Below are positions 1-45,727 of a stretch of DNA of 64,000 nucleotides, one piece after another (position 1 is the first letter of the stretch; each line of letters opens with the position of its first letter). Source of the DNA: Gemmatimonadaceae bacterium (lineage in GTDB: Bacteria; Gemmatimonadota; Gemmatimonadetes; Gemmatimonadales; Gemmatimonadaceae). The notes below the pieces were generated by a model. It was not told the DNA's origin. It saw only the letters and a program-made list of their open reading frames with translations, and made no database searches. Both the position numbers and the translations under genes were made by a program. The stretch is taken from positions 1,765,506 to 1,829,505 of the forward strand of contig JBHYGA010000001.1 of the NCBI GenBank assembly GCA_051859245.1. Direction: 5' to 3'.

Positions 1-648
1 CTGCTTGGCTTGATCGAAGCATTGGCCCGACTTGGCGTGCGCATGATTGCCATGACAGCCGACAAGCACTCGCGCCTTGCACGCCATGCCGATGTCGTGC
101 TGGATCTGGGCGTCAAAGAAGAAGCGTGTCCGCATGACCTTGCGCCAACAACCAGCACCACGGCAACACTCGCACTCGGCGATGCCCTCGCGGTGGCGTT
201 GCTGCAGGAACGCGGGTTCGGGTCCGAAGATTTTGCGCGCTTGCATCCGGGTGGCGCTCTGGGACGCAAACTGCTCACGCGCGTGCGTGATGTCATGGTC
301 ACATCGCCGCTGCCAACCGTTGGTGCGAATGCCACGATGCGTGAGGCCACGGTTTGCCTCGCTGGTCGACGCGGCATCGCGATTGTGGTTAACGAAGCAC
401 GCATGATTGGCGTGATCACGGCTGGCGATCTGGCTCGACTGCTGGAGCGAGAGCCTGACGCGCTGAGCGTGCCTGTCAGCCAGGTCATGACGCGCGAGCC
501 GCGCGCCGCGACAGAGGGAGAGCTCGGCAGTGCGGTCGTGCATCGCATGGAAACACACGGCATCATGGCGATGCCGGTACTAAACGACGAAGGGGTTCTT
601 GTGGGTGTAGTCCATTTGCACGATCTGATGCGCGCCGGAGCAGTGTGA
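1..648 (+). CDS. kdsD: KpsF/GutQ-family arabinose-5-phosphate isomerase, 5'-truncated by the window edge
   Basis: End of SIS domain (EEACPHDLAPTTSTT, LHPGGALG) followed by a CBS pair; sits directly upstream of lptC. Confidence 0.92.
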   Translation: MLGLIEALARLGVRMIAMTADKHSRLARHADVVLDLGVKEEACPHDLAPTTSTTATLALGDALAVALLQERGFGSEDFARLHPGGALGRKLLTRVRDVMVTSPLPTVGANATMREATVCLAGRRGIAIVVNEARMIGVITAGDLARLLEREPDALSVPVSQVMTREPRAATEGELGSAVVHRMETHGIMAMPVLNDEGVLVGVVHLHDLMRAGAV

Positions 649-1208
649 TGACGCGCATTGCACGACTTCTTGTTTTTGCAGGCGCGTTTGGCGTAACGCT
701 CGCCGCATGCGGTGATTCAACCGGGACCACGCCGCAGGCCGGTGATTCCGTGTTGCCCGACTCCGCCGAAGCGATGGGCTGGGGAATTACGGTCATGCTC
801 ACGAACAATGGTGTGGCCAAGGGCGAGTTGCTCGCGGATACGACGCTGTTTTACGACAGCAATAATCGCCTCGAACTGCTTAAGTTCAGCGTCACGTTCT
901 TCAACGCGCTCGGTGAAAAAGACGGGCTGCTTACCGCGAAAGAAGGCACCTACAACAAGCGACTCAACCGCCTCGAGGCGCGCGGCAACGTGGTGGTCGT
1001 GCGCGAAGACGGGAAGCGTCTCGAGACGCCACAGCTCGTGTACGATGAACTGCGGAATCAGATGTTCAGCGACAGCAGTTTCGTGCTCAACGAACCGCCC
1101 AAGCGACAGATCACTGGCATCGGCTTTGAGTCGGACCCGCAGCTCACGAAGTTTCGCGTGATGAAGAACTTCAAGGGTGTGGCGCCGGTCAAAGTGGAGA
1201 CGCCGTGA
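645..1208 (+). CDS. lptC: LPS export periplasmic protein LptC, probable lipoprotein
   Basis: LptC-like beta-jellyroll pattern (LTAKEGTY, ARGNVVV, LETPQLVYD, ITGIGFESD); LAAC lipobox; kdsD-lptC-lptA-lptB-rpoN synteny. Confidence 0.85.
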   Translation: MMTRIARLLVFAGAFGVTLAACGDSTGTTPQAGDSVLPDSAEAMGWGITVMLTNNGVAKGELLADTTLFYDSNNRLELLKFSVTFFNALGEKDGLLTAKEGTYNKRLNRLEARGNVVVVREDGKRLETPQLVYDELRNQMFSDSSFVLNEPPKRQITGIGFESDPQLTKFRVMKNFKGVAPVKVETP

Positions 1209-3037
1209 GCAGACGTGTGCTTTCCGCCCGAGGTGTACTACTCGGCGCGGTGATCACAAGTACCGTGCTGGCCGGCTGCTTTGGTGGTCGTCGTGGTCGT
1301 CCTGCAGAGACGCCCGCAGCAACTCCAGACTCAGCACCCGTCGTGGCCCCACCGGTCACGCGCGATGACTCCCTTCGCGCAGACTCACTGCGTGCGGATT
1401 CCGTGGCGCGTGCGCGTGTGGCCGACAGCATTGCGCGGGCTGACAGTGCACGCGTTGGTCAGCCGCTTCGTGACACGACCGTGGCCGCACAGGATAGTGC
1501 GAAAAAAGTCACGGTGCCTGCCAAGAAGAAGCCGGCTCGCGACTGCGTGCTCGATCTCAATGAGAACCCGCCCGACTCACGAGTGCTCAGCAACCTGCTC
1601 AACGACGGTTCGCGCACCACGTTTATCGGCGGCGGCTTTTTTGCGCGCTGCCAGGGTGAACCGCAAACGATTCGCGCGGACAGCGCCGAGCAATACGAAA
1701 ACGCCGGCGTGCTGATTCTCGTCGGCAACGTGATTTTCGAAGAGCCGGGCAAGATCCGCGTCACGGCGCCAAGCGCCACGTACTTTCAGCAGGAAGAAAA
1801 GATCGTGGGTTATGGCGGCGTGGTGGCCACTGATATTCCCACAGGCTCCACATTCACAGGCCCCACCATCGAGTACTTTCGCGCCGCCTCGTTTCGACCG
1901 GAAGCACGACTCTTCGCGCCGCAGCGGCCCACCATGCGGCTGATCGAAAAAGACTCTACGGGCGCTGAACGTCCGCCCGTAAGCATTACGGCCAATCAGC
2001 TGGAGCAGCGCGGCGATACCACGCTCGCGGGATGGGGCGACGTGGTCATTACGCGACAGGACATTGAAGGCCGCAGCGATAGCGCGTCGTTCAACAAGTT
2101 CACGGAGAACGCTCGCCTGATTCGGAACGCCTCGATCGTATCCTCGGACACCACGCGATCGTTCCGATTGGTCGGCGACTCCATCGACATGTTCAGCAAG
2201 GACCGCGTGCTCGAGCGCGTGATCGCCATGCATCGCGCGCAGGCAACAAGCAATGATGTGTCCATGCGCGCGGAACGCGTCGAAATGCATCTCGATTCGG
2301 CGCGAGTTGATCGAGCGTGGGCGTACGGCACTGGTCGCTCGTACGCGGAAACGTCATCGCAGCAGCTCGAAGCCGACTCAATTGAAATTCTGATGCCGGG
2401 CCAGTTGGTTCGTACGCTGAATGCCACCGGCAAGGCGCTCGCATTCGGCACACCGGACAGCACGCGCATTCGAAACGCCGAGCGTGATGTGCTGTCGGGC
2501 GACACGATCATCGCGTCGTTTGATACCATCACCACACCGCCTGACACGTCGCCCAAGAGCGAAATCAGGGAGGTGATCGCGATCGCCAGTGCAAGTGCAC
2601 GGTACCAGATTCCATCAGGTCGCGGCGCGAGTTGTCCGCCCGGCATCAACTACGTGCGAGGGAAACGCATCGTCGTGGCCTTTGACTCCAGTAGTGTTCG
2701 CACAGTGACCGTGGACTCCGCCGCCTCGGGCGTGTACCTCGAACCCGCGCCGGACTCGCTGGGCGACAGCACGCGCGTCCTCTGCACACCGCCCCCTGAC
2801 AGCGCCGGCGATTCACTCCGCGTGCTGCCCCCCGACTCGACGCGCCCGCCCGTTACGGTGCCCCCTGATTCCGTACGCCCACCCGCGACCGTACCGCCCG
2901 CACGGCCGCGAACGTTCGGCGCACATTTGGTCGCGCCCCCGCTAAATTCCGAATTGATTCATGAACCGCGCAGACTCTACGCGGTCCTTCCTTTGACTCG
3001 CCCACATGACAGAACACACGCCCGCCGAGCACGATGA
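1205..3037 (+). CDS. Long OstA/LptA-like lipoprotein with repeated beta-jellyroll segments
   Basis: LAGC lipobox; OstA-like segments (IRADSAEQY..LVGNV, ITANQL..GDVVI, LEADSIEI, LSGDTI); occupies the lptA position. Confidence 0.72.
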   Translation: MSRRVLSARGVLLGAVITSTVLAGCFGGRRGRPAETPAATPDSAPVVAPPVTRDDSLRADSLRADSVARARVADSIARADSARVGQPLRDTTVAAQDSAKKVTVPAKKKPARDCVLDLNENPPDSRVLSNLLNDGSRTTFIGGGFFARCQGEPQTIRADSAEQYENAGVLILVGNVIFEEPGKIRVTAPSATYFQQEEKIVGYGGVVATDIPTGSTFTGPTIEYFRAASFRPEARLFAPQRPTMRLIEKDSTGAERPPVSITANQLEQRGDTTLAGWGDVVITRQDIEGRSDSASFNKFTENARLIRNASIVSSDTTRSFRLVGDSIDMFSKDRVLERVIAMHRAQATSNDVSMRAERVEMHLDSARVDRAWAYGTGRSYAETSSQQLEADSIEILMPGQLVRTLNATGKALAFGTPDSTRIRNAERDVLSGDTIIASFDTITTPPDTSPKSEIREVIAIASASARYQIPSGRGASCPPGINYVRGKRIVVAFDSSSVRTVTVDSAASGVYLEPAPDSLGDSTRVLCTPPPDSAGDSLRVLPPDSTRPPVTVPPDSVRPPATVPPARPRTFGAHLVAPPLNSELIHEPRRLYAVLPLTRPHDRTHARRAR

Positions 3038-4286
3038 TCAGCTGAGCGCGCCCATGCGCGCCATGCTCGACCAGCTCGCCGCGGGCGACCTGTCGCAGGC
3101 GCTCACTGTTCGCGCCCTGATTATCGCGGCGCTGAAGAACGCGTCCTTCGGTGAGCCATCTGCCCAGATGGAGCACGGCAGTGCGCCGCTGTACGCGGTG
3201 GCCAATGAGTATCGCACGCTCAAACTCAGCGCGCTGGCGGCAGAGGGACGAAATCTTGCCTCAGCCGCTGATCGGTTGAGTGAAGACGAAGTCCGGCATT
3301 CGCTCTCAACGGTTGTTCTTCCGGCGTTGGCGGCTGACGGCATCGTGGTGCTTCCGCTCGACGGAATGACTGCGCCCGACGCCCATGTGCAGCTGGCCCC
3401 GGCGCTCTGGAGCGCAGCTCTGGCATCGCCCGACGCTGTGTTGGCGGCGCTTCCCGATGCCGCTACGCCCGCCGCGCGCGCGCTCGCGACTCCGCATGAC
3501 GCGCCGGTCGTGGGTGGCAGCGAGCTCGCCGCACGTGGTCTTGTGAAGGTGTACCGCGGTCGCACCGTCGTGAACGACGTGGCGCTGCAGCTTCGGCAGG
3601 GCGAGATCGTGGGCTTGCTCGGCCCGAACGGCGCCGGCAAGACCACCACGTTCTACATGATCGTTGGGCTGATCGCGCCGCTGATGGGCCAGATCACCTT
3701 CGACGGGGAAGACATCACGCGCACGCCAATGTACAAGCGGGCGCAGCGAGGCATCGGCTATCTGGCGCAAGAGCCGTCCATCTTTCGCAAACTCACCGTA
3801 GAAGACAACATTCTGGCAATCCTTGAAACGCTCGACCTGTCGAAGAGCGAGCGTCTCGCGCGGCTCGAGACGTTGCTCGATGAGCTCAAGATCAAGCACC
3901 TTCGGCGAAGCAAGGCGTTTCAGTTGTCTGGTGGTGAACGACGTCGCCTCGAGATCACGCGCGCGTTGGTCACCGAGCCGAAGTTCATGATGCTCGACGA
4001 ACCGTTTGCGGGCGTTGATCCGATTGCCGTAGATGACATCCAGAAGATCGTAGCGCAGTTGCGGTACCGGGGGATCGGCGTCCTCATTTCAGATCACAAC
4101 GTCGAGCAGACGCTGGACATCGTGGATCGGGCCTACATCATGTATGATGGTCAGGTGAAAGCCGCGGGTACGGTGCGCGAGCTGGTGTTTGACGACGAAG
4201 TGTCCCGGATGTACCTGGGTCCCACCTTGACCGCGCGCCTTCGCTCGCGGTTTGCCGAGTCGACTGTGGAGGCAACAGCGACATGA
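3006..4286 (+). CDS. lptB: LPS export ABC ATPase LptB with ~170-aa N-terminal extension
   Basis: GPNGAGKTTTFYM Walker A, GIGYLAQEPSIFRKL, LSGGERRRLEI, LDEPFAGVDPIAV; directly upstream of rpoN. Confidence 0.95.
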   Translation: MTEHTPAEHDDQLSAPMRAMLDQLAAGDLSQALTVRALIIAALKNASFGEPSAQMEHGSAPLYAVANEYRTLKLSALAAEGRNLASAADRLSEDEVRHSLSTVVLPALAADGIVVLPLDGMTAPDAHVQLAPALWSAALASPDAVLAALPDAATPAARALATPHDAPVVGGSELAARGLVKVYRGRTVVNDVALQLRQGEIVGLLGPNGAGKTTTFYMIVGLIAPLMGQITFDGEDITRTPMYKRAQRGIGYLAQEPSIFRKLTVEDNILAILETLDLSKSERLARLETLLDELKIKHLRRSKAFQLSGGERRRLEITRALVTEPKFMMLDEPFAGVDPIAVDDIQKIVAQLRYRGIGVLISDHNVEQTLDIVDRAYIMYDGQVKAAGTVRELVFDDEVSRMYLGPTLTARLRSRFAESTVEATAT

Positions 4287-5779
4287 AGACGGGTTTGCAG
4301 CAGAGCACTTCGCTCCGTCAAGAGCTGAAGATCAATCCACGCCTGTATCAGGCGATGGATCTGCTGTACATGCCCCTGCTCGACCTGCAGCAGCACCTCA
4401 AGCAGGAGTTGCTCACCAATCCGTTTCTCGAACTCGTTGAGCCGGACGACGAAGAAGCCGAAGCGGAAGACGACAACGATAGCGAGCAGTCGGAGCCGGA
4501 AAATCTCGTCGAGGCCGAAACCACGGCCGAAGCGGAACCCGAGAAATCGGGCGACGATGATATCGACTGGGAAGGCGTGCTGCTCGACGGGTTCGAAACG
4601 GGTGGACAGCGCGAAGAAGCCGATACCCGTGAGTATTACGAACCGGTCACGGTGGCGGTGCATGATCTCTCCGATCATCTCAAGGAACAGATTGCGCTGC
4701 TTGATCTCACGCCGCGCCAGGAACTGTTGGCAGAAGAGTTTGTCGGCAACATTGACGAATCGGGACATCTGGCGGCTACGCTCGATGAGATTCGTGATGG
4801 CGTGAACGATGTGCTCATTCGCGCGGCCGAGGAGCTGGATGTGCCGCCTGCCACACCGTTCACCGATGAAGAAGTGCTCGCCATGCTGCGCGTGATTCAG
4901 GAACTGGATCCGCCGGGCGTTGGCGCGCGCGATCTGCGCGAATGCCTGCTGTTGCAGCTTGAAGCCGCGGGCGCCAAGGGCTCGCTCGCGTGGCGACTGG
5001 TCGATGAAGCGTTTGAAGAGCTGATTGCGCATCGCTGGAGTGAAGTGTCCAAGCGCTTTGGCATCAACGCGCAGGATGTGCAGAACACTGCGGACGAAGT
5101 GGCGCGCCTCGATCCCAAACCCGGCCTGCGTTTTTCATCGAGCAGCGAAGATTACATTGTGCCCGATCTCGTCATCGACAAGATCGACGGGCAGTACCAC
5201 GTGTTTCTCAACGATGGCAATCTGCCGCGCCTCAAGCTGAGCCGTTCGTATCAGGAGCTCGCGCGCGATCGCAAGCGCTTTGATACCGAGAGCAAGGATT
5301 TCATCGCGTCCAAGCTGAACTCCGCGAACTGGATGATTCAGGCCATTGAACAGCGTCGACAGACGATGCTCAAGGTGATGCACTTTATCGTTGACCGTCA
5401 GCGTGACTTTTTTGAGCGCGGTGTACAGTATCTGCGTCCGCTCACACTGCGCGAAGTCGCCGAAGCCGTTGGCATGCACGAGAGCACGGTCAGTCGCGTG
5501 ACCAACGAAAAGTTTGTGCAGACGCCGCGCGGTGTGCTTCCGCTCAAGTTTTTCTTTTCGTCGGGCCTTTCCACGTCAGACGGTGACGACGTGTCGGCGC
5601 GCGGTATTCGCGATCAGATCGAAAAACTGGTGAGCGGCGAAGATGTGCTGAACCCGCTCACTGACCAGGCCATCGTCGAGATCCTGCTCAAAACGGGCGT
5701 GCAGATCGCACGACGTACCGTGGCAAAGTATCGCGACCAGCTTGGCATTCTACCCGCGCGCATGCGCAAGCGAGTTTGA
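4283..5779 (+). CDS. rpoN: RNA polymerase sigma-54 factor
   Basis: Q/L-rich region I, HTH (MHESTVSRVT), RpoN box ARRTVAKYR. Confidence 0.98.
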   Translation: MKTGLQQSTSLRQELKINPRLYQAMDLLYMPLLDLQQHLKQELLTNPFLELVEPDDEEAEAEDDNDSEQSEPENLVEAETTAEAEPEKSGDDDIDWEGVLLDGFETGGQREEADTREYYEPVTVAVHDLSDHLKEQIALLDLTPRQELLAEEFVGNIDESGHLAATLDEIRDGVNDVLIRAAEELDVPPATPFTDEEVLAMLRVIQELDPPGVGARDLRECLLLQLEAAGAKGSLAWRLVDEAFEELIAHRWSEVSKRFGINAQDVQNTADEVARLDPKPGLRFSSSSEDYIVPDLVIDKIDGQYHVFLNDGNLPRLKLSRSYQELARDRKRFDTESKDFIASKLNSANWMIQAIEQRRQTMLKVMHFIVDRQRDFFERGVQYLRPLTLREVAEAVGMHESTVSRVTNEKFVQTPRGVLPLKFFFSSGLSTSDGDDVSARGIRDQIEKLVSGEDVLNPLTDQAIVEILLKTGVQIARRTVAKYRDQLGILPARMRKRV

Positions 5780-5783
5780 TCGC

Positions 5784-6800
5784 GTGAAGGTTGCCACGCC
5801 AACGTCTGCATTCGCCGACACACGCCCGCGCGTTGCCGCACCGGCAACGCTTGATGTCAGCGTGTTGGTACCCGCGAAAGACGAAGCGCAGAATCTGCCG
5901 TTGTTCATGCAGCAAGCGGCGGAGGTCTTTGCACCGCTCAACACGCGCTTTGAAGTGCTGGTGATCGACGACGGATCAACAGACGGTACGTGGGACGTAT
6001 TGCAAGCGCTGCAGCAGCAGTACTCGTTTCTGCGCGCGGTACGTCATCGTACGCAGCGCGGTATCGCCGAGGCGCTGCGCACCGGCTGGCTGCACGCGCG
6101 TGCCGACGTGCTCGTGTTTTATCCTGCCGATCTCCAGTTCAAGCCAGAGGACATTCCGCGCCTTGTCGCGCCGATTCTTGCCGGTGAGTCGGATATGGTC
6201 ACTGGGTTCAAGCAGGGCGTCTACGAAAAGGCGTTTGTCTCACGCATTTACAACGGCTTGAGCCGACGGCTCTTTCGTGTGTCGGTGCGTGACCTGAACA
6301 ACGTGAAAGCGTATCGGCGCGAGATCATGCAAGCGCTGCCGATGCGCCCGGACTGGCACCGGTACATGATTGTGCTCGCGGCCAATCAGGGCTACACGGT
6401 CAGCGAGATTCCGATTCCGTTGTATCCGCGTCACGCCGGTCGCTCCAAGTTCGGCATCAGTCGCATTCCAATCGGCGTGCTCGACATGCTGGCCGTGTGG
6501 TTCGAGTTGCGCTTTGGACAAAAGCCGTTGCTTGCGTTCGGCATGATGGGCGCCGCACTGTTTGCGCTCGGTGTGCTCACCGGCCTTGTCGCAGTGGGTG
6601 TGCGCGTGTTTTCCGGTGTTGGCTTTCGCCCGCTGCTCACGCTCGTTGATACATGCCTGACTCTCGGCAGCGTGTTCTTCGCCACTGGCTTGCTCGGCGA
6701 ACAGATCGCGCAACAGCGCGCAGAACTGCGTGACATTCGCCGTGCGCTCGATGAAGTGCTGGCCGATCGCGAGGCGTCCCGCGCGCGCGGCGACGTCTGA
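5784..6800 (+). CDS. GT2 polyprenol-phosphate glycosyltransferase (ArnC/GtrB-like) with C-terminal TM helices
   Basis: VSVLVPAKDE, IDDGSTDGT, ADLQ at the DxD position, PRHAGRSKF, two C-terminal hydrophobic helices; GTG start chosen just after the rpoN stop. Confidence 0.85.
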   Translation: MKVATPTSAFADTRPRVAAPATLDVSVLVPAKDEAQNLPLFMQQAAEVFAPLNTRFEVLVIDDGSTDGTWDVLQALQQQYSFLRAVRHRTQRGIAEALRTGWLHARADVLVFYPADLQFKPEDIPRLVAPILAGESDMVTGFKQGVYEKAFVSRIYNGLSRRLFRVSVRDLNNVKAYRREIMQALPMRPDWHRYMIVLAANQGYTVSEIPIPLYPRHAGRSKFGISRIPIGVLDMLAVWFELRFGQKPLLAFGMMGAALFALGVLTGLVAVGVRVFSGVGFRPLLTLVDTCLTLGSVFFATGLLGEQIAQQRAELRDIRRALDEVLADREASRARGDV

Positions 6801-6814
6801 GCAACACACGCGAC

Positions 6815-8008
6815 GTGTCCGCGTCTCCGCGCGTGTTGTTTGTGACGCACAATTTTCCTCGCCACGAAGGCGATGCGGCAGGCTCGTTTGTCTTGCGACT
6901 GGCCCGGGCCTTAACTGATGCGGGCGCGTCGGTGCACGTCCTCGCGCCGGCCGCACCGAAGCTCGCTGCGCGCGACGTCATCGAAGGCATCCCGGTGGAA
7001 CGCGTACGCTACGCCTCCGATGATAAACAAACGCTGGCCTACGAAGGCACGATGGCCGAGTCGGTTCGTGCATCGTGGTCAGGCCGGTTCGCGTTATTGG
7101 GATTGTTGTGGCACGTTCGTCGCGCCGTCACGCGCGCGCTTGCAGAGGCGCGACGACGCGGCGAGCCGTTTGACATTGTGCACGCACACTGGTGGTTTCC
7201 CTCCGCGCTCGCCGTTTGGCAGAGTGGGCTCGGACGAGCAGGTGCACCGCCGCTCGTGATCACGATGCACGGCAGTGACGTTCGGCTTGCGCGATCGGTA
7301 AAACCGTCGCACGCTATCATGCGCGCGGTCCTTGGTAGCGCACGCGCCGTCACGGCCGTTTCATCGTGGCTGGCTCGCGAAGCCATGCACATCGCACCAG
7401 CGGTGAAGGTGGACGTTGCCCCGATGCCGGTCGACATCGCACACTTTACGCCCGGAGTCGTACCGCGCAGCGGCAGGCTCCTGTTTGTGGGCCGTCTCAA
7501 CGCGCAAAAGGGCGCGGCCGATCTGCTGGATGCCCTCGCCCGCACTACACACGACGTACACTGCGACATCGTTGGCGACGGATCGGATCGTGAGGCGCTG
7601 CAACAGCGCGCACGCACACTTGGTGTGGAGGCACGCGTGCATTGGCACGGTGCACTGATGTCGCACGCGCTGCCGGCGTTGTACGCGCGTGCGCTCGCAA
7701 CGATCATGCCCTCGAGAGAGGAAGGCCTTGGCCTTGTGGCCGTGGAGTCACAGCTGTGTGAAACACCAGTGATCGCCTACGACTCGGGCGGGCTGTCTGA
7801 TGTGGTGCAGAGCGAACACGGCGGAACGTTGGTGACGGTTGGTGATACCGCAGCACTCGCACGCGCGATCGATGCACTCGCAGATGATCCGGAGCGCGCG
7901 GCCATAATGGGCCGGGCAGCGCGCGCTCGCGTGCTCGATGTATTCAGCCCATCGCAGGTCGCCGCGCGATATCTCGCGGTGTACGGAACCGCGATCCGAA
8001 CGTCGTGA
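6815..8008 (+). CDS. GT4 (GT-B fold) glycosyltransferase
   Basis: HAHWWFP, TMHGSD, LFVGRLNAQKG, EGLGLVAVE (EX7E) motifs. Confidence 0.9.
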   Translation: MSASPRVLFVTHNFPRHEGDAAGSFVLRLARALTDAGASVHVLAPAAPKLAARDVIEGIPVERVRYASDDKQTLAYEGTMAESVRASWSGRFALLGLLWHVRRAVTRALAEARRRGEPFDIVHAHWWFPSALAVWQSGLGRAGAPPLVITMHGSDVRLARSVKPSHAIMRAVLGSARAVTAVSSWLAREAMHIAPAVKVDVAPMPVDIAHFTPGVVPRSGRLLFVGRLNAQKGAADLLDALARTTHDVHCDIVGDGSDREALQQRARTLGVEARVHWHGALMSHALPALYARALATIMPSREEGLGLVAVESQLCETPVIAYDSGGLSDVVQSEHGGTLVTVGDTAALARAIDALADDPERAAIMGRAARARVLDVFSPSQVAARYLAVYGTAIRTS

Positions 8009-8979
8009 GTGCGCAACAGGTGACGTCGCCACCGGCGAGCGGAAAGCAATGGTGGTGGCGTGCGCTCCAGGTGCTACTGCTCGTCGCACTGTTCGTTTTG
8101 ATTGCGCGCGAACTCTCGGAGCAGCGCGACGCGCTAAGAGCGGCTGCGGCGTCGGTGCAGCTCCAATGGCATCTGATCGCAATTGCGAGTGCGATCGTAC
8201 TCGCCACCTACGCGGCGCTTATTCAGAGTTGGCGCATGCTCATGGCCGGGTGGGGCAGTCACATCGGCTTCCTGAATGCGACACGCATCTGGACTATTGC
8301 CAATCTTGGCAGATACATCCCGGGAAAGATCTGGTCCGTTGGCGCGCTCGTTGTCCTGGCGCAGCGTGAAGGGGTGAACGGCGTGGCCTCGGCCGGCGCC
8401 GCGCTCCTGGGTACGGCCATCAATATTGGTGCGGGTATGGGCGTCGTGTCCCTCGCGGGCGCGGCGGTGCTCAACGTGTTGGGCCCGGGTTATCGCCTGA
8501 CCGCGTGGATTGGCAGCGCACTCTTTGTTGTGGGCGTACTGGCATTGCCATGGATCCTACCGGCGCTCTTGCGATTTCTGGCGGCGCGGCGTGCAGGGCT
8601 GGAGCCACCGGCGCGCGCACTCCCCAACAGCGCCGTGTGGGCCGCCGTATCAATCAACATTGCCTCCTGGCTTGGCTACGGCGCGGCGTTCGCGATTTTC
8701 TGCCACGCTTTGTTGCCCGACATCAGTGGCGCCTTACCGGCTTTTGTCGCAATTTGGACTGCTTCATACCTGGTGGGGTACCTGTTTCTCGTTGCGCCCG
8801 GTGGCATCGGTGCGCGAGAGACGGCGCTTGTTGCTGCCATGGTCGCGCTCGGCGTTGCCACATCAGCGGAGGCCGCGGTACTCGCGGCGGCGTCTCGCAT
8901 TTGGCTGATCGTTCTGGAAGTACTGCCGGGCCTCATAAGTCTTGCTCTCGCTCCTGCATCGCGATCGCGCGCACCGTGA
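8005..8979 (+). CDS. Lysylphosphatidylglycerol-synthase TM-domain / flippase-like membrane protein
   Basis: Multi-TM; NLGRYIPGKIW and APGGIGARE motifs typical of the family. Confidence 0.8.
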   Translation: MSAQQVTSPPASGKQWWWRALQVLLLVALFVLIARELSEQRDALRAAAASVQLQWHLIAIASAIVLATYAALIQSWRMLMAGWGSHIGFLNATRIWTIANLGRYIPGKIWSVGALVVLAQREGVNGVASAGAALLGTAINIGAGMGVVSLAGAAVLNVLGPGYRLTAWIGSALFVVGVLALPWILPALLRFLAARRAGLEPPARALPNSAVWAAVSINIASWLGYGAAFAIFCHALLPDISGALPAFVAIWTASYLVGYLFLVAPGGIGARETALVAAMVALGVATSAEAAVLAAASRIWLIVLEVLPGLISLALAPASRSRAP

Positions 8980-9045
8980 CGGGCTCTTGCCCAACGGGGT
9001 TCGCTCGTGTGTGGACGCGTTCCTCGTTATCCCCTGATTGCTCGC

Positions 9046-11475
9046 ATGGATCGAACTGACTCTACGCTGCCCGACTGGACCCCACGGTTTGCCTGGGGCT
9101 GGGCAGTCCTGACATGCCTGATCTGCACCATGCTGCTCGCCTGGCCCGCCCTGAGCGGCGGCTTCCTGGTGAATCCGCATTCCGATCAATACATCGCGGG
9201 TTATTCGTTCCGTCATTTCGCAGCGCAAATGCTGCAAAGCGGTCAGGGCATACCGCAGTGGAACCCGTACCTGCAAGGCGGCATGCCGTACGTGGCCGCA
9301 ATGCACGGCGACATTTTTTATCCCACGTTTTTGCTGCGCATGTTGTTGCCAACAGACGTGGCGATGACCTGGGGCTTCGTGATTCACACCATGCTGGCCG
9401 GTGTGTTTACCATCGGGTTTCTGCGCGCGGTCGGGATGGGCTTGCTGCCGGCAACCGTCGGCGGGGTGGCCTACATGCTGAGCGGTCAGCTCGCGTCGTT
9501 TCCGAGTCCGGGCCACGACGGCAAGCTCTTTGTGAGCACGCTGCTGCCGCTCACGCTCTGGATGCTGGTGCGAGGCGTGCGTGACGGGAGAAAATGGGCG
9601 TGGGGCGCGCTGGCCATCGTCGTTGGACTGGGTGTGTTGTCGCCGCATCCGCAGTTGCTGCAGTATCTGTTGCTGACCGCAGGCGCGTTCGCGCTGTTCA
9701 TTGCACTCAAGCCGTCGGCTGTGTCTGTGACGGCACCAACAGGCAAGAGCACCGACGCGACGGCAAAAAAGACGCAGCTGCCGCGACTCGGTCTCGCGCT
9801 CGGCGCAGTCGCGATCGGTTTCGCGATCGGCGCGGTCCAGTTTCTTCCGGTGAGCGAATACGTGGACTGGTCGCCGCGTGAAGGTGGCAAGGACTACACG
9901 TACGCGTCGTCGTACTCCATGCCGCTTGAAGAAACGATCAACATGTGGATTCCGCAGTTCTCCGGTATTCTCGACAACTACTGGGGATCAAATGGCATTC
10001 ACTTCCACAGCGAATACCTCGGCGTTGCGGTCATTCTCCTGGCGTTTGCCGGTCTCGCCGGCGGCGTGCACAAACACATGCGGGCGCACGCCTGGTTCTG
10101 GCTCGGCACCGCGATCGTCACGCTCTTCTGGGCGTGGGGCGGCAACACGCCGTTCTACAAACTGGTGTACTGGCTGGTGCCAGGCTCCAAGTATTTCCGC
10201 GCGCCCAGCACAATTCTGTTCGTGGTCACGTTCTCCACAGCCATGCTGGCGGCCTTTGGCGCGGAGCGTCTGCTGGGCGGAAAGCTGAGTAATCGGTTCG
10301 CCATCGGCGCGGCGGCGGCGGGCGTGCTGACGGCTGTGCTCGCGTCGGTCGGCTTTTTCTCAAGCATCGCGCAAGCCGTGATGGTGGATCCGTCGCTGAT
10401 CGTCAAAGTCGACGCAAACGCTTCGGCTCTGGTGGCCGGTGGCTGGCGCGTGGCGGTGGTGGCGTTGCTCGTGGCCGCGATCGCGTTTGCCGCCACGCAA
10501 AAAAAGCTCCCGGCTCGCGCACTGGGAATCGCGCTGATCGCGGTGGTGGCTCTCGACCTGTGGAGTATCGGTCGGCAGTACTGGCTCTTCAGCGAGGGCG
10601 CGGACAAGCTCTTCGCGACAGACGCCGTCGTGGACTATCTCGCCGCGCAGAAAGAACCCGGCCGCGTCATTACTGGCGCGTTCGAGGGCGGGGAGCCGAT
10701 CAATGGTCGGGACCCGTTCTACGGACACTCCGGTCTCATGGCCTACAATATCAGAGCGGTCACAGGCTACCACGGCAACGAGCTTGGTCGCTATCGCCGA
10801 CTGATCGAGTCGACGGAGAGTGGGATGTTTGGCAATCCCAACTTTTGGGCACTAGCCAATGTCCAGTATTTGTACACTAACCTTCCTGAGTTGCCAATCG
10901 AAGGCGCAACCAAGGTGGCCGGGCCGGCAACCAACGCGGCTGGCAACACCGTCTATCTGTACCGAATGCCGGGCGAAAATCCGTACGCGTGGGTTGTCCC
11001 GCTGCGAGTGAAGTCCGACGACGAAAGCGCACTCGCCACCGTGATCGATCCGCGATTCAATCTCGATCGCGCGGTCTTGTTCGCCGCCGACGCGCCGGTC
11101 AACGCACAGGAAGCAAACAAGGTGGCCACGGTGCCTGAACCGCTGGACGTCAAAGCGCGCGTGACGAGTTATGCGCCAGGCGCCGTGGATATCACGCTGG
11201 AAGGCGCGGTACCCGAAGGCGCGACACTGGTGGTTTCCGAGAACTTCTACCCGGGTTGGACCGCCACCGTGGACGGCGCGAACGCACCAATTGGCCGCGC
11301 GAATTACGTGATTACCGGTGTGGAGCTTCCGGCCGGCGCGAAGTCGGTGAGCCTGCGCTTTGACAATCCAAAGAACCACACGGGACGGCTGGTGACCTTG
11401 CTCGCGCTGGGACTGGCGGTGCTCTGGCTGGCGTACGGGGTGGTGGCGGATCGCCGGAGTGTTCCGAGTGCCTGA
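9046..11475 (+). CDS. YfhO-family GT-C-type integral membrane glycosyltransferase
   Basis: PQWNPYLQGGMP...FYP, many TM helices, YFRAPS, C-terminal SENFYPGWTATVDG periplasmic domain and terminal TM; ATG at 9046 preferred. Confidence 0.85.
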   Translation: MDRTDSTLPDWTPRFAWGWAVLTCLICTMLLAWPALSGGFLVNPHSDQYIAGYSFRHFAAQMLQSGQGIPQWNPYLQGGMPYVAAMHGDIFYPTFLLRMLLPTDVAMTWGFVIHTMLAGVFTIGFLRAVGMGLLPATVGGVAYMLSGQLASFPSPGHDGKLFVSTLLPLTLWMLVRGVRDGRKWAWGALAIVVGLGVLSPHPQLLQYLLLTAGAFALFIALKPSAVSVTAPTGKSTDATAKKTQLPRLGLALGAVAIGFAIGAVQFLPVSEYVDWSPREGGKDYTYASSYSMPLEETINMWIPQFSGILDNYWGSNGIHFHSEYLGVAVILLAFAGLAGGVHKHMRAHAWFWLGTAIVTLFWAWGGNTPFYKLVYWLVPGSKYFRAPSTILFVVTFSTAMLAAFGAERLLGGKLSNRFAIGAAAAGVLTAVLASVGFFSSIAQAVMVDPSLIVKVDANASALVAGGWRVAVVALLVAAIAFAATQKKLPARALGIALIAVVALDLWSIGRQYWLFSEGADKLFATDAVVDYLAAQKEPGRVITGAFEGGEPINGRDPFYGHSGLMAYNIRAVTGYHGNELGRYRRLIESTESGMFGNPNFWALANVQYLYTNLPELPIEGATKVAGPATNAAGNTVYLYRMPGENPYAWVVPLRVKSDDESALATVIDPRFNLDRAVLFAADAPVNAQEANKVATVPEPLDVKARVTSYAPGAVDITLEGAVPEGATLVVSENFYPGWTATVDGANAPIGRANYVITGVELPAGAKSVSLRFDNPKNHTGRLVTLLALGLAVLWLAYGVVADRRSVPSA

Positions 11476-12235
11476 TCGCTCTACACCGTGGTCCCCGCAG
11501 GCTCCGATACCTGAAGGCGAACGTGCACTCGTGATCGTGCCCACGTACAACGAGCGCGAAAACATTCTGAAAATCGTGCCACGCATTCTGGCCGAGGATC
11601 CTCGGCTTGAAGTCCTGGTCGTGGACGATAACTCGCCCGACGGCACCGGTCAGCTCGCGGACCAACTTGCCGCGGCCGATCCGCGCGTGAACGTGCTGCA
11701 TCGACCGGGAAAAGCCGGCCTCGGTCGCGCCTATCTGGCGGGCTTCGAATGGGCCTTGCAGCGTGACTATGCGTACATCTTTGAGATGGACGCGGACTTC
11801 TCGCACGATCCGGCGCACCTCACGGAGTTCCTGCACGCGATTCAGGACGCCGATATGGTGCTCGGATCGCGGTATCGTCAGGGCAGGGTAACCGTTGTGA
11901 ACTGGCCGATGACTCGGCTGTTGCTCTCGTACTCGGCCAACATTTACGCGCGCCTGGTGACGGGGCTCCATCTGGGCGATGCCACCGGTGGCTTTAAGTG
12001 CTTCCGGCGCAAAGTGCTCGAAGCAATTCCGCTGGATCAGGTACGATCAAACGGGTACGCTTTTCAGATCGAGATGAGCTACCGCGCCTGGAAGCGCGGA
12101 TTCCGAATTGCTGAGATCCCGATCGTGTTTAATGATCGCACCGAAGGCGAGTCGAAGATGTCCAAACGCATCGTTCGCGAGGCGGTGTGGATGGTGTGGC
12201 GACTTCGCTGGTGGGGCATTACTGGCCGCTATTGA
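11468..12235 (+). CDS. Polyprenol-monophosphomannose (Dol-P-Man) synthase-like GT2
   Basis: IVPTYNERENI, VDDNSPDGTG, EMDADFSH, DATGGFKCF, SNGYAFQIEM, GESKMS match Dpm1/Ppm1. Confidence 0.9.
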   Translation: MPDRSTPWSPQAPIPEGERALVIVPTYNERENILKIVPRILAEDPRLEVLVVDDNSPDGTGQLADQLAAADPRVNVLHRPGKAGLGRAYLAGFEWALQRDYAYIFEMDADFSHDPAHLTEFLHAIQDADMVLGSRYRQGRVTVVNWPMTRLLLSYSANIYARLVTGLHLGDATGGFKCFRRKVLEAIPLDQVRSNGYAFQIEMSYRAWKRGFRIAEIPIVFNDRTEGESKMSKRIVREAVWMVWRLRWWGITGRY

Positions 12236-43243: not shown

Positions 43244-45727
43244 CTAGAAAAGCTGTCCGAGCCGGAAATGAAACTGCCACCGCGGGTCCGGCCGCACGCG
43301 GAGGGTAGACGGATCGACCGCGACGCGATCGAATCCGTACGCCAAATCGAGCCCGAGCGGCCCGAGGGGTGTCACGGTTGATACACCAACGCCCGCCGAA
43401 CGGAACAGGCGCGTTGGGTTGAACTGTCGTGCAGACGCCCAGTTGTTACCGGCGTCGAAGAACGTATTGATGTACAACATCTGGCTCACACGCAAACCCA
43501 GTTCGCCCGACATTGTGAAGAACGCATTACCAAACGACTCAGGCTCCGACGAGAACTGACCGGTATTCGGATTGAAGCCGCGCGGCGTAATGGAGAACTC
43601 GGGATAACCACGCAACACCTGTCCGAACTGCACACCACCAACCGCAAACTGCTGCTGGAAGAAGAACGGTCCGGAGTTACCGAACAAGGTACCCGCCTTG
43701 GCCGACAGACCCAACAGGATCGGCAGCGGCTGCGAGCCCGGTGACTTGCCGCCGATTTGCGCGAGCTGCGTGTACGACTTCATCTCGCCAGTGTAGCGCT
43801 GGAAGTTCACCGTGCCACCAAGCGGTCCACCGCTGAAGTCTGCGGTGAGCGACCGAAGCGAACCGGTGAACGGGAACGGCATACCCAGGCGATTGTCAAA
43901 CGTGTAGTCAAAGCCAAGGCTGGACCGGAAACAGTCACGCGAGCACTGCCCGGCAATCTGTCCCTGCGTAAACGTGGCCGACTCCGCGCCGTACGTGACG
44001 GAGAGCGCCGAGTTGTACGACCACGGCACCGGGAAGCCCAAACGGAACTGTGCACCGGTCCGAATGTTCTGTCCAAGATTGCCAACCACGAAGCGCGACT
44101 GCGTGCGATACGCACTGACCGTGCCTGACGTTCGTGTGCGACGCAGCGCCGGATCCTGATACGTGAGCGTGAAGTCGTTGAAGAAGCGACCGTACTGCCA
44201 GTTCAAGGACCCGCGCTTGCATTGGCCGAACAGATTGGGCTGCTCAAGATTGATGAAGCCACCAAAGCCCACGCCGCCCTGGCCCATGGAGGCACCAAAG
44301 CCCACGCTGCCGGTGCGCTTTTCCTTCACCGTAAAGATCAGATCAACATCGCCGGCGTCGTTCACCGTCTTCGTGGACGGCGTGGCCATGGGCGACTCGA
44401 AGAACCCAAGATTCTGAATCTGCTGATAGCTGTTGATCAGCGCCGTCTGATTGAACACACCACCCGGAACAAGCACAATCGCGCGACGAATACAATCTTC
44501 CGACGTGTAGTCGTTGCCCACGATTTCAATGCGGTTCACAATCGCGGGTGTGCGTTCATCGACTTCCCACCGCAGATTCACCACGGGGATGGAATCTTCG
44601 GTCACACTACGTTCGATCACGGGATAGACGTTCGCGTAGATGTAGCCACGATCCGCGTACATGCTGCGCGCTTCCTGTGTGGCCTTCTCAAACTTCTCCG
44701 CGTCGAACACACCTTCTTCAGCGCGCTTTTCGCGTCGCACCAGAGAAAACAGCCGTTGACGCAGCGATCGGCCCGCACCGCTCGCGCGGTACATACCATC
44801 CAGCACGTCGGTTGGCACGACGCGGTTGCCCGTGATACCAAAGTCGCCAATGCGATACTGCGGGCCTTCATCGATCGTGATGCGCAGCTTGCCTTTGCCG
44901 AGCTCCGGATCCACGAGCAACGTATCGTCGAGCACGCGCGCGTCGATGTACCCCAGTCGTGCGTAGAGTGACGGAATGCGTTCGCCAAGATCTCCGGCGT
45001 ACTTTTCTTCGTCAAACTCACCCTTTCGGAAGAAGAAAAACCCTTCCGGTTTGGTCTGCATGACCGAGGCGACTTCCTTGGGCTTCACGCCTTCGGTGCC
45101 GCTGAACTCGAGACCCGAGATCGCGAGTCGACGTCCTTCGTCAATCCGGAACGTGATGCCGAGCCGACCGTCGGTCATCTCGGTGGTATCGGGCGTAATC
45201 GTGGCCAGATAGTATCCGGCCGATTTGTACATGGAATCAATGCGAGCACGCGAGGTCGCGATCTCGGCGGGATCCACGGGGCGACCGATCAGCAGCGAGA
45301 CCTTATCGCGCACACTGCGCGCAGAGAGCGCCTTCACGCCTGTGACGTTGACATCACCAAGCAGCGCGCGCTCACTCAGGTTGTACACGATCAGCGCTTT
45401 GCCCGGCACCGCCTCGAGGTCGCAGGAGATGCCCACGTCGTGAAACTGACCGAGCGCGAAGATGTTCTTGATCGCGGTCTGCAGCACCTGAAAGTTGAGG
45501 CGCTCGCCAACGCGCAGTCCGCCCTCGCCGCGCACGACGGCCTCGCCAACACGATTGAGCCCGCGCACCGCGATCGAATCGGGTGTCGCGCAGCGTCCAG
45601 CGAGCTGTTGCTCGGGGTCCTGCGCGGCCAGCCCTTTGGGCAGAACCGCAGCACAGGCGAGCACTGTCAACGCATGCAATACGCACCGGTGAACCGGGCG
45701 CCACGACCTAAGCAGCACAGGAGGCAC
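43244..45727 (-). CDS. bamA: Outer membrane protein assembly factor BamA
   Basis: POTRA repeats, VKEKRTG, LRGY motif, TPLGPLGLD, C-terminal Phe. Confidence 0.95.
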   Translation of the reverse strand: MPPVLLRSWRPVHRCVLHALTVLACAAVLPKGLAAQDPEQQLAGRCATPDSIAVRGLNRVGEAVVRGEGGLRVGERLNFQVLQTAIKNIFALGQFHDVGISCDLEAVPGKALIVYNLSERALLGDVNVTGVKALSARSVRDKVSLLIGRPVDPAEIATSRARIDSMYKSAGYYLATITPDTTEMTDGRLGITFRIDEGRRLAISGLEFSGTEGVKPKEVASVMQTKPEGFFFFRKGEFDEEKYAGDLGERIPSLYARLGYIDARVLDDTLLVDPELGKGKLRITIDEGPQYRIGDFGITGNRVVPTDVLDGMYRASGAGRSLRQRLFSLVRREKRAEEGVFDAEKFEKATQEARSMYADRGYIYANVYPVIERSVTEDSIPVVNLRWEVDERTPAIVNRIEIVGNDYTSEDCIRRAIVLVPGGVFNQTALINSYQQIQNLGFFESPMATPSTKTVNDAGDVDLIFTVKEKRTGSVGFGASMGQGGVGFGGFINLEQPNLFGQCKRGSLNWQYGRFFNDFTLTYQDPALRRTRTSGTVSAYRTQSRFVVGNLGQNIRTGAQFRLGFPVPWSYNSALSVTYGAESATFTQGQIAGQCSRDCFRSSLGFDYTFDNRLGMPFPFTGSLRSLTADFSGGPLGGTVNFQRYTGEMKSYTQLAQIGGKSPGSQPLPILLGLSAKAGTLFGNSGPFFFQQQFAVGGVQFGQVLRGYPEFSITPRGFNPNTGQFSSEPESFGNAFFTMSGELGLRVSQMLYINTFFDAGNNWASARQFNPTRLFRSAGVGVSTVTPLGPLGLDLAYGFDRVAVDPSTLRVRPDPRWQFHFRLGQLF

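Follow-up and report, generated by a model that had tools for sequence, protein, structure and literature searches.

An Asp-Ser/Thr tripeptide is enriched in the exported proteins of a Gemmatimonadaceae bacterium and may be a Bacteroidota-type O-glycosylation sequon

The window considered here is a stretch of 64,000 nucleotides from a Gemmatimonadaceae bacterium (contig JBHYGA010000001.1 of assembly GCA_051859245.1, positions 1,765,506 to 1,829,505 of the forward strand), whose genome comprises 4.70 Mb with a guanine plus cytosine (GC) content of 62%. Its left end holds a cut kdsD-like gene, followed by lptC, an open reading frame (ORF) for an LptA-like lipoprotein, lptB, rpoN and five tightly packed glycosylation genes; the operon formed by the latter lies directly after rpoN, 6 kb downstream of the LptA-like gene. 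An earlier note on this DNA had flagged the LptA-like ORF for its many copies of the tripeptide D-[ST]-[AILVMT], which is the motif counted throughout this work and the sequon of general protein O-glycosylation in Bacteroidota. We find that this tripeptide is under selection in the extracytoplasmic proteome of the genome, the LptA-like protein being the extreme case. The features of the locus are listed below by window position, with protein lengths in amino acids (aa).

645..1208, + strand: lptC-like lipoprotein gene, 187 aa (Pfam LptC, E 1.7e-8)
1205..3037, + strand: LptA-like lipoprotein gene, 610 aa, 26 motifs (Pfam LptD_N; Foldseek; rank 1/3698 in the genome)
1205..1279, + strand: signal peptide with lipobox LAGC (Cys25) (heuristic lipoprotein call, cleavage at residue 24; helix 3-25 in the model)
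1280..1540, + strand: N-terminal linker, residues 26-112, 8 motifs, disordered with one low-confidence helix (58-83)
1541..2740, + strand: Lpt beta-jellyroll core in extended form (residues 113-512), 29 strands and 12 motifs, of which 11 lie in 113-500
2741..3034, + strand: C-terminal tail, disordered (residues 513-610), with 6 motifs at 517-555, most of which stand in a P-P-D-S context
3006..4286, + strand: lptB (ABC ATPase), extended at its N-terminus by about 185 aa, 0 motifs (Pfam ABC_tran at residues 189-335)
4283..5779, + strand: rpoN (sigma-54), cytoplasmic, 0 motifs (named from the reading in the earlier note and the E. coli gene order)
5742..6800, + strand: family 2 glycosyltransferase (GT2) of the ArnC/GtrB/PgfS type (Pfam Glycos_transf_2, E 1.8e-24)
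6815..8008, + strand: family 4 glycosyltransferase (GT4) (Pfam Glycos_transf_1, E 4e-37; Glyco_transf_4, E 3.7e-18)
8005..8979, + strand: membrane protein with an LPG_synthase_TM domain (Pfam PF03706, 45.2 bits against a cut-off of 33.4)
9007..11475, + strand: YfhO-family GT-C membrane protein, 822 aa, candidate O-glycosyltransferase
11459..12235, + strand: GT2 of the Dpm1/PpgS/AglJ type (Pfam Glycos_transf_2, E 1e-34)

The ORF at 1205-3037, located between lptC and lptB, encodes a 610-aa lipoprotein with an Lpt jellyroll core flanked by disordered ends. Pfam LptD_N/OstA (PF03968) matches residues 155-317 with 26.3 bits (cut-off 20.4), and the score against the NCBIfam LptA equivalog TIGR03002 is 21.4 with a cut-off of 71.7; because the latter lies so far under its cut-off, the protein is termed LptA-like here and not LptA proper. 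In the AlphaFold model (mean predicted local distance difference test, pLDDT, of 76.8) the core from about residue 113 to 512 forms one uninterrupted beta-jellyroll of 29 strands (strands 126 to 512), which we take to be roughly twice the strand count of E. coli LptA. Block means of pLDDT exceed 90 over most of the core and 80 nearly throughout, and values below 50 occur at residues 26-58 and 85-99 of the N-terminal linker and at 532-610 of the tail. Foldseek matched the model with probability 1.0 to LptD, LptA (2r19), LptH (4uu4) and LptC (3my2), with template modelling (TM) scores, taken per target, of 0.68 for LptH 4uu4 and 0.64 for LptC 3my2. The lipobox call was repeated in 8 of 11 same-genus orthologues.

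A manual count in the earlier note had given 26 motifs in this protein and about two thirds of all Asp residues followed by Ser or Thr. The translation of 1205-3037 (+ strand) contains exactly 26, and 29 of its 42 Asp residues precede Ser (23) or Thr (6). The motifs lie at residues 42, 55, 60, 65, 74, 80, 90, 97, 159, 250, 271, 292, 315, 325, 364, 391, 418, 433, 440, 504, 517, 521, 532, 536, 544 and 555, that is, eight in the N-terminal linker, 11 in residues 113-500 and seven beyond 500. Whole-protein shuffling (20,000 rounds) yields a mean of 2.9 (standard deviation, sd, 1.6; maximum 10), so that the observed number is about nine times the expectation, and 5000 shuffles within 10-residue blocks, which keep the local composition, yield a mean of 4.0 (sd 1.8; maximum 12). 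When the same three residue classes are put in any of the five other orders, the resulting tripeptides are found 1 to 8 times each, against 26 for the D-S-X order. Among the 3698 proteins called in the genome, the LptA-like protein ranks first for motif excess (Poisson p 7e-17). Tandem duplication of DNA was considered as a source of the motif arrays and rejected, the only repeat being a 9-bp unit present twice at 1284-1301, within the signal peptide.

The counts reported earlier for other proteins of the window are also borne out by the translations. LptC has four motifs in 187 aa (DST, DSV, DSA and DTT), three of which fall in the tether just past the lipobox Cys, and BamA (bamA, 43244-45727, with POTRA and Omp85 domains) has five where 1.9 are expected; LptB and RpoN have none, with 1.6 and 1.7 expected, respectively. 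As a side observation, the N-terminal extension of LptB (about 185 aa, window 3006-4286) has no Pfam match. The frames at the lptB position, assigned to lptB from gene order alone in the relatives, are long in Gemmatimonadales (406 aa in genome G016, 388 aa in G064) and short in G077 (241 aa) and G083 (286 aa).

LptA-like orthologues were recovered at 29 of 30 Gemmatimonadota loci (none at that of G032), and all 29 are motif-rich, with 6-31 motifs where 0.6-3.9 are expected. Same-genus orthologues carry 23-31 motifs (about 3 expected) and those of other Gemmatimonadales 9-13 (1.2-2.5 expected); single orthologues from elsewhere in the phylum carry 28 in G077 (3.5 expected), 23 in G083 (3.6 expected), 6 in G034 (0.6 expected) and 8 in G039 (1.3 expected). 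A search of the G080 genome gave no LptA-like match. The orthologues of G077 (L136:9995-11890) and G083 (L137:10100-12388) possess long Ala-rich or acidic linkers both inside and after the jellyroll, which consist almost only of D-T/S-A/V/L/T units at a spacing of 5-10 residues.

The conservation of the motifs differs between the parts of the protein. Five core motifs (159, 292, 391, 418 and 433) occupy the same alignment column phylum-wide; the N- and C-terminal arrays are genus-specific and conserved inside the genus. Within the genus, the N-terminal linker keeps the motif Asp at 0.76, the Ser/Thr at 0.77 and the third-residue class at 0.86, compared with an identity of 0.31 for its other residues. 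In the core, the Asp and Ser/Thr of motifs are kept at 0.98, against 0.70 and 0.69 for Asp and Ser/Thr outside motifs, and in the tail zone 501-560 motif residues are kept at 0.77-0.82 against 0.49 for the others. In E. coli, LptA has no motif, LptC two and LptD one.

At the scale of the genome, genes were predicted with a codon-usage gene caller and proteins were sorted by a heuristic classifier of signal peptides, lipoboxes and membrane helices, all of them home-made and crude, and the expected number of motifs was calculated from the composition of each protein itself. A composition-controlled comparison of signal-peptide and cytoplasmic proteins, as proposed in the earlier note, reveals an excess in exported proteins and a flat ratio in cytoplasmic ones. 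Under a lenient signal-peptide rule, the 1211 secreted proteins contain 2398 motifs where 1466 are expected (observed over expected, O/E, 1.64), the 1408 cytoplasmic proteins contain 1272 where 1310 are expected (0.97), and the membrane classes reach 1.13-1.36. A strict rule retains 404 secreted proteins, 310 of which carry at least one motif; the set contains 968 against 523 expected (1.85), with ratios of 2.43 for DS-X (623/256) and 1.29 for DT-X (345/267). The 968 observed compare with 525 +/- 21.7 in 200 shuffles (z 20.4) and 544 +/- 22 in shuffles of 10-residue blocks. The bootstrap interval of the ratio is 1.68-2.03, and a value of 1.53 is left when the 40 richest proteins are removed. 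No BLAST match for E. coli LptD was found in the home-called protein set.

Related patterns are flat in the secreted class: E[ST]X has an O/E of 0.86-0.92, N[ST]X of 0.88, the reversed motif of 0.97-1.00 and D[ST] followed by other residues of 0.70-0.71. The corresponding values in the lenient cytoplasmic class are 1.05 for E[ST]X, 1.09 for the reversed motif and 0.73 for D[ST]-other. After DS in secreted proteins, the favored third residues are L (2.09), M (1.85), T (1.56), I (1.41), A (1.40) and V (1.39); D, E, F, G, H, K, N, P, Q, R and Y are depleted to 0.39-0.66 (G 0.62, P 0.52) and C to 0.31. Only mild preferences appear in the flanks, where P or A is favored in front of the motif and R behind it, and acidic residues are avoided.

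The excess is also sided. None of the 37 proteins with a Poisson p below 1e-3 belongs to the cytoplasmic class, which makes up 38% of all proteins. When 153 membrane proteins with a single pass were oriented by the positive-inside rule, their outside portions had an O/E of 1.70 (141/83.2) and their inside portions of 1.08 (91/84.0). A Ser/Thr membrane kinase with an outside domain has all 14 of its 14 motifs past the membrane helix, and in LptF/G all nine lie within the periplasmic loop. These two are among the proteins ranked 2-21 for motif excess, which by Pfam comprise three TamB/AsmA paralogues, LptF/G, a TonB protein, the Ser/Thr kinase and several periplasmic enzymes; six of these proteins have no Pfam match.

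Some of the motif-rich proteins deserve mention in their own right. The TamB/AsmA paralogues (1519-1543 aa; G000:C1:1306809-1311365, G000:C7:75471-80048 and G000:C8:16204-20832) carry 26, 24 and 23 motifs where 6.9-8.0 are expected and take ranks 3, 4 and 9; TamB orthologues in G016 and G064 carry 19-24 where 5.7-7.0 are expected. LptF/G (590 aa, G000:C1:720347-722116) has its nine motifs in a loop of about 350 aa, an enrichment not seen in five other genomes, and its divergent neighbor on the opposite strand (722367-728798) encodes a 2144-aa secreted protein with 19 motifs and no Pfam match. In G080, whose secretome is otherwise unenriched, a 3736-aa lipobox protein (G080:C1, within 1000001-1400000) contains 46 motifs against 19.3 expected (p 2e-7).

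The same pipeline was applied to other genomes, for which the secreted O/E is given as lenient / strict. The negative controls were E. coli K-12 (250 kb; 1.05 / 0.95), Rhizobium leguminosarum (200 kb; 0.27, 4/15) and Ralstonia (50 kb; 0.37, 2/5), and the known glycosylator Phocaeicola massiliensis reached 1.28 / 1.95 over 98 kb, with a strict DS-X ratio of 2.82. Among Gemmatimonadota, enrichment was found in G016 of the same family (1.96 / 2.94), in G064 of the same order (1.98 / 2.26), in G049 (1.92) and G068 (1.63) of other orders of the same class, whose contigs include their own LptA-like genes, and in two members of other classes, G031 (1.83 / 2.25) and G035 (2.22 / 2.83; the strict set has four proteins, 20/7, and 112 of 132 kb were scored). 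The signal of Gemmatimonadales is at least as strong as that of the Bacteroidota samples, and we regard selection on the tripeptide in the outside-facing proteome as established for this genome and for Gemmatimonadales.

The operon next to the LptA-like gene has the make-up of a lipid-linked sugar transfer system. The first GT2 (5742-6800) matches the NCBIfam ArnC-type model at residues 38-331 (E 8.6e-27) and PgfS (E 9e-16) and is predicted to be a polyprenyl-phosphate sugar synthase. The second (11459-12235), which shares 17 nt with the 3' end of the YfhO-family gene, matches AglJ (E 6.5e-18), PpgS (E 2e-17) and a dolichyl-phosphate hexose transferase (E 1e-12) of NCBIfam and is a putative polyprenyl-phosphate hexose synthase; the LPG_synthase_TM protein (8005-8979) appears to be flippase-like. 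The 822-aa protein has at least ten hydrophobic segments, a soluble stretch at 519-790 and then a last membrane helix. In an hhalign comparison, a profile of 16 Gemmatimonadota orthologues matched YfhO of Phocaeicola massiliensis (830 aa) with a probability of 100 (E 2e-41, 716 columns; query 34-796, target 14-820), which amounts to full-length YfhO homology. D60, invariant in 16/16 orthologues and aligned with an Asp of Phocaeicola YfhO, is a candidate for the acidic residue that the GT-C catalytic motif places in the first extracytoplasmic loop. PF09586 is carried by 30/30 ESM-Atlas clusters nearest to the protein. A sequence and profile search of the PDB with it returned nothing meaningful and no match to the protein O-mannosyltransferase (PMT) family.

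In a tblastn search of 72,556 records of a plasmid collection, the 822-aa protein found matches in six, five of them from Bacteroidota; four are annotated as 'YfhO family protein' and two have no annotation at the match. Several of the records filed as plasmids are megabase-scale replicons (1.3-2.3 Mb) with bamA-like sequence and are usable as genome samples; NC_022111.1, NZ_CP140867.1 and NZ_CP115947.1 have 0-1 annotated features each. In Phocaeicola massiliensis OY725987.1 (L167:40853-46256), yfhO (830 aa) has an mtnN-like PNP_UDP_1 gene on one side and a convergent GT4-GT2 pair on the other, and its position beside the mtnN-like gene is the arrangement described in a preprint (10.64898/2026.07.27.740950). 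A GT4-GT2-YfhO module shared with Bacteroidales was considered and dropped, as the genes flanking yfhO in Phocaeicola are only generically similar to those of the window (E 8e-4 and 6e-9, over short stretches).

The genes between rpoN and the YfhO-family gene look like a swappable middle part when the window (5742-12235) is compared with L136 and L137. G016 has a five-gene module identical in make-up to that of the window; G083 has, from rpoN to YfhO, a GT2, a UDP-GlcNAc 2-epimerase, a GT4 and an opposite-strand methyltransferase, and G077 an unknown protein and a methyltransferase. As a discriminator of enriched and non-enriched genomes, operon content gave no clear rule across G016, G083 and G077.

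Taken together, these results lead us to read the tripeptide as a Bacteroidota-type O-glycosylation sequon, marking O-glycosylation sites of which the LptA-like protein would bear the most, and we put the probability of this reading at roughly two in three. It is suggested by the neighboring operon and by a point-for-point match with the only known sequon-driven bacterial system: a 2025 review reports for Bacteroidota the same third-residue preference, the preference of Ser over Thr and the intolerance of Glu. The proposal in the earlier note of an analogous system with a heavily glycosylated Lpt bridge thus gains support from exported-protein enrichment, sidedness and residue rules. What the note called 'this lineage' is uneven, secretome-wide enrichment being seen in Gemmatimonadales and some other families and not in G077, G083 or G034. 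Bacteroidota-type protein glycosylation would then probably exist outside Bacteroidota.

According to this reading, the Ser or Thr of the tripeptide would receive its glycan at the periplasmic side of the inner membrane, either in the course of export or afterwards, and the LptA-like bridge would carry up to about 26 glycans, in clusters on its two floppy ends and with about a dozen on the jellyroll. By analogy with streptococci, the likely effect would be that the linkers are shielded from periplasmic proteases and held extended and hydrated. Tentatively, and with the odds leaning slightly the other way, we propose the YfhO-family GT-C at 9007-11475 as the transferase. Its partners would be the polyprenyl-phosphate sugar synthases at 5742-6800 and at 11459-12235, the GT4 and the flippase-like protein: a GT2 would load a sugar onto undecaprenyl phosphate, the lipid-linked sugar would be flipped, and YfhO would transfer it to the Ser/Thr of the sequon.

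A number of results weigh against this interpretation, some against the sequon and some against the proposed enzyme. All of the support consists of sequence statistics. The lenient signal-peptide rule tags 47% of proteins and misfiles CarB; errors of the classifier should dilute any signal. The 'cytoplasmic' bin of the strict rule has an O/E of 1.14, which we put down to exported proteins missed by that rule, and it could also reflect a mild general bias. A further known glycosylator, Prevotella sp. (200 kb), is a weak positive control at 1.18 / 0.90 (membrane class 1.45); because the Bacteroidota controls are weak, O/E must be regarded as a blunt detector that under-detects a real system in small samples. 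No secretome-wide enrichment was found in three genomes of the same class and other orders, namely G077 (0.85 / 1.18), G080 (1.02 / 1.18) and G083 (240 kb; 0.88 / 0.87), or in G034 of another class (1.18 / 1.11), and TamB is likewise not enriched in G077 (8 against 5.9) and G083 (10 against 6.0). The first gene caller performed poorly on relatives of 68% GC (198-238 genes per 400 kb; G077 and G083 have 67-68% GC), and reseeding by GC at third codon positions (GC3) left the results unchanged. Secretome-wide enrichment is thus patchy, being present in Gemmatimonadales and some other families and not in these four genomes.

The five core motifs conserved phylum-wide coincide with a D-x-hydrophobic structural pattern of the whole Lpt family. 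Since the column of D292 reads D-E-V in E. coli LptD, the Asp and the hydrophobic residue count as structural features of the family, and lineage specificity is confined to the Ser (S/T). Together with the finding that about half of the core motifs fall within predicted strands and that motifs are densest within the first 60 residues of mature lipoproteins (11.5-12 per 1000 aa in tethers), this invites the view that the tripeptide has no dedicated function and merely follows from structural habits of beta-rich exported proteins, the strand starts of the Lpt jellyroll and Asp/Ser/Ala-rich linkers. The controls have largely refuted this view, which we consider very improbable: 26 and 968 motifs were counted in the protein and the secreted set where block shuffles leave 4.0 and 544, the reversed motif is flat (0.97-1.00), E. 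coli LptA has no motif, and in the disordered linker motif residues are kept at 0.76-0.86 against 0.31 for their neighbors. Nor does Asp-Ser behave as a generic turn or cap motif, the possibility raised in the earlier note, since E. coli, Rhizobium, G077 and G083 showed no excess with the same pipeline.

G077, G083 and G034 have motif-rich LptA-like proteins despite their unenriched secretomes, so that the pattern in this protein can stand alone. Such a distribution would also fit a protein-specific signal, and the results prove selection on the motif outside the membrane, not its chemistry. The tripeptide may be selected for a role other than glycan attachment, be it another modification of periplasmic Ser/Thr (a phospho-form or acyl group) or a signal for a chaperone, a protease or sorting. 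We hold this to be a long shot. The residue rules equal those of the known glycosylation system (Asp and not Glu, Ser over Thr, L/I/V/T/A/M in third position with Gly, Pro and charged residues excluded, extracytoplasmic proteins only), a complete operon for lipid-linked sugar transfer is found at a distance of 6 kb, and we know of no other modification with a D-[ST]-[AILVMT] motif.

With regard to the enzyme, Pfam YfhO (PF09586) matches only the C-terminal 60 residues of the 822-aa protein with 21.9 bits, under the cut-off of 28.5; Phocaeicola YfhO gives the same C-terminal-only match with 29.4 bits. The YfhO-family gene is found in 61/61 Gemmatimonadota genomes searched, one of them (G076) unpublished, whether enriched or not, and because all non-enriched genomes carry it, its presence does not predict enrichment and was ruled out as a marker of it. 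The genome also encodes two Wzy_C-domain proteins, which score 77.8 and 46.9 bits and could be ligases, polymerases or the transferase itself in place of YfhO; Bac_transf and GT2 genes adjoin the gene of one of them. The YfhO operon is syntenic with the lipopolysaccharide (LPS) transport genes, and because it adjoins lpt genes and YfhO relatives also glycosylate teichoic acids, as mentioned for Bacillus and Listeria in a streptococcal study (PMC12041528), it could decorate LPS instead of proteins. An explanation in which the motif is an O-glycosylation site, the transferase is a Wzy_C/PglL-type or other enzyme, and the YfhO operon decorates LPS or another envelope glycopolymer departs from the preferred one in the enzyme step only. 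We judge it unlikely. According to the 2025 review, O-glycosylation outside Bacteroidota that depends on an oligosaccharyltransferase (OTase) has no sequon, so that a PglL-type enzyme would need a new specificity. YfhO, the only GT-C family compared, matches its Bacteroidales homologue at full length, and streptococcal YfhO-family enzymes are described as protein O-glycosyltransferases (PMC12041528).

Returning to the sequon reading with YfhO as transferase, the system may have begun with few targets, including the Lpt bridge, and become general in Gemmatimonadales, because the LptA-like protein is motif-rich throughout the phylum and secretome-wide enrichment is lineage-restricted. A more sweeping version, which we find rather doubtful, would make the YfhO-family GT-C a sequon-reading O-glycosyltransferase common to Bacteroidota and Gemmatimonadota, an ancestral trait of the Fibrobacteres-Chlorobi-Bacteroidetes (FCB) group that at first acted on a few envelope proteins, with the Lpt bridge as its oldest client, generalized independently to the secretome in Bacteroidota and Gemmatimonadales.

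In Bacteroidota the OTase, the core flippase and the ligase are undiscovered, sequon-directed bacterial O-glycosylation has been called unique to the phylum, and the motif is said to be enriched 'mainly' there (2025 review). The one proposal for the missing Bacteroidota OTase is YfhO, predicted in silico in a 2026 preprint (10.64898/2026.07.27.740950). We found no paper describing sequon-type protein glycosylation in Gemmatimonadota, and the term 'Gemmatimon*' does not occur in the text of the 2025 review. New here are the tests made across the genome, on topology and on conservation, the use of control genomes, the phylum-wide distribution of enrichment and the direct profile match to a Bacteroidales YfhO.

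We contend that a second phylum with the same motif rules is an independent comparative handle on a transferase that has been missing for more than 15 years, all the more as the YfhO homologue here shares its operon with synthases of lipid-linked sugars and has the genome's most motif-dense protein as a neighbor. Gemmatimonas is non-pathogenic and culturable, which makes it suitable for tests. The findings further suggest a target, the sequons of exported proteins, for the phylum-wide YfhO operon and predict that the bridges by which these bacteria transport LPS and phospholipids are glycoproteins. Should the more sweeping version given above be true, sugar coats on lipid-transport bridges (LptA-like, LptF/G and the three TamB paralogues) would be integral to outer-membrane biogenesis.

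The LptA-like protein resembles E. coli LptA in its gene position between lptC and lptB, its Pfam LptD_N/OstA match and its beta-jellyroll fold. E. coli LptA differs in its length (185 against 610 aa) and in its 0 motifs against 26, and the Gemmatimonadaceae protein, unlike it, has a lipobox, disordered ends and a jellyroll of about 390 residues.

Dpm1/Ppm1 and PMT carry out the protein O-mannosylation of eukaryotes and actinobacteria. Here too a Dpm1-like GT2 gene overlaps the 3' end of a GT-C gene, and translocating proteins would receive a single sugar on Ser/Thr, with a polyprenyl monophosphate as its donor. Bacteroidales YfhO is reported in the preprint to match yeast PMT by HHpred (10.64898/2026.07.27.740950). 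PMTs, however, are not known to have an Asp-first sequon.

In the CsbB-GtcA-YfhO systems, which glycosylate teichoic acids in Bacillus and Listeria, a GT2 loads the lipid carrier, a flippase turns it over and the YfhO GT-C transfers the sugar outside. This three-component logic is as proposed for the Gemmatimonadaceae operon; the acceptor there is a glycopolymer and not a protein, and here no GtcA was identified, an LPG_synthase_TM protein being found in the operon instead.

A closer parallel is offered by the streptococcal PgtC2 and PgfM1 system, for which a study demonstrates experimentally that YfhO-family enzymes with GtrB/PgfS GT2s O-glycosylate extracytoplasmic disordered regions (Nat Commun 2025, PMC12041528). 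Both systems combine a YfhO-family GT-C with a GT2 that makes, or here is predicted to make, an undecaprenyl-phosphate sugar, and the regions concerned are disordered, outside-facing parts of membrane-associated proteins, including a PknB-type kinase; the streptococcal glycans are reported to protect disordered linkers from proteolysis (PMC12041528). The account of the targets in that study is one of poly-Ser/Thr tracts without a sequon in monoderm cells, whereas the present case is that of a diderm with a strict Asp-first tripeptide, which also occurs on folded domains.

The Bacteroidota system belongs to a different phylum, and the Gemmatimonadota case is known from sequence alone. Here the operon that holds the YfhO-family gene follows lptB-rpoN directly and includes two polyprenyl-phosphate sugar synthases, the GT4 and GT2 flanking Phocaeicola yfhO are not specifically related to the Gemmatimonadota ones, and secretome-wide enrichment is patchy within Gemmatimonadota. 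On folded domains there is a parallel in Bacteroides, where subunits of BAM, the machinery for beta-barrel assembly, are reported to bear glycans at D-T/S-hydrophobic sites (PMC12578637). Both phyla have the same D-(S/T)-(A/I/L/V/M/T) motif, restricted to non-cytoplasmic, outside-facing regions, with Ser over Thr and no Glu for Asp; in both, many envelope-biogenesis proteins are affected, and a full-length YfhO homologue is present here.

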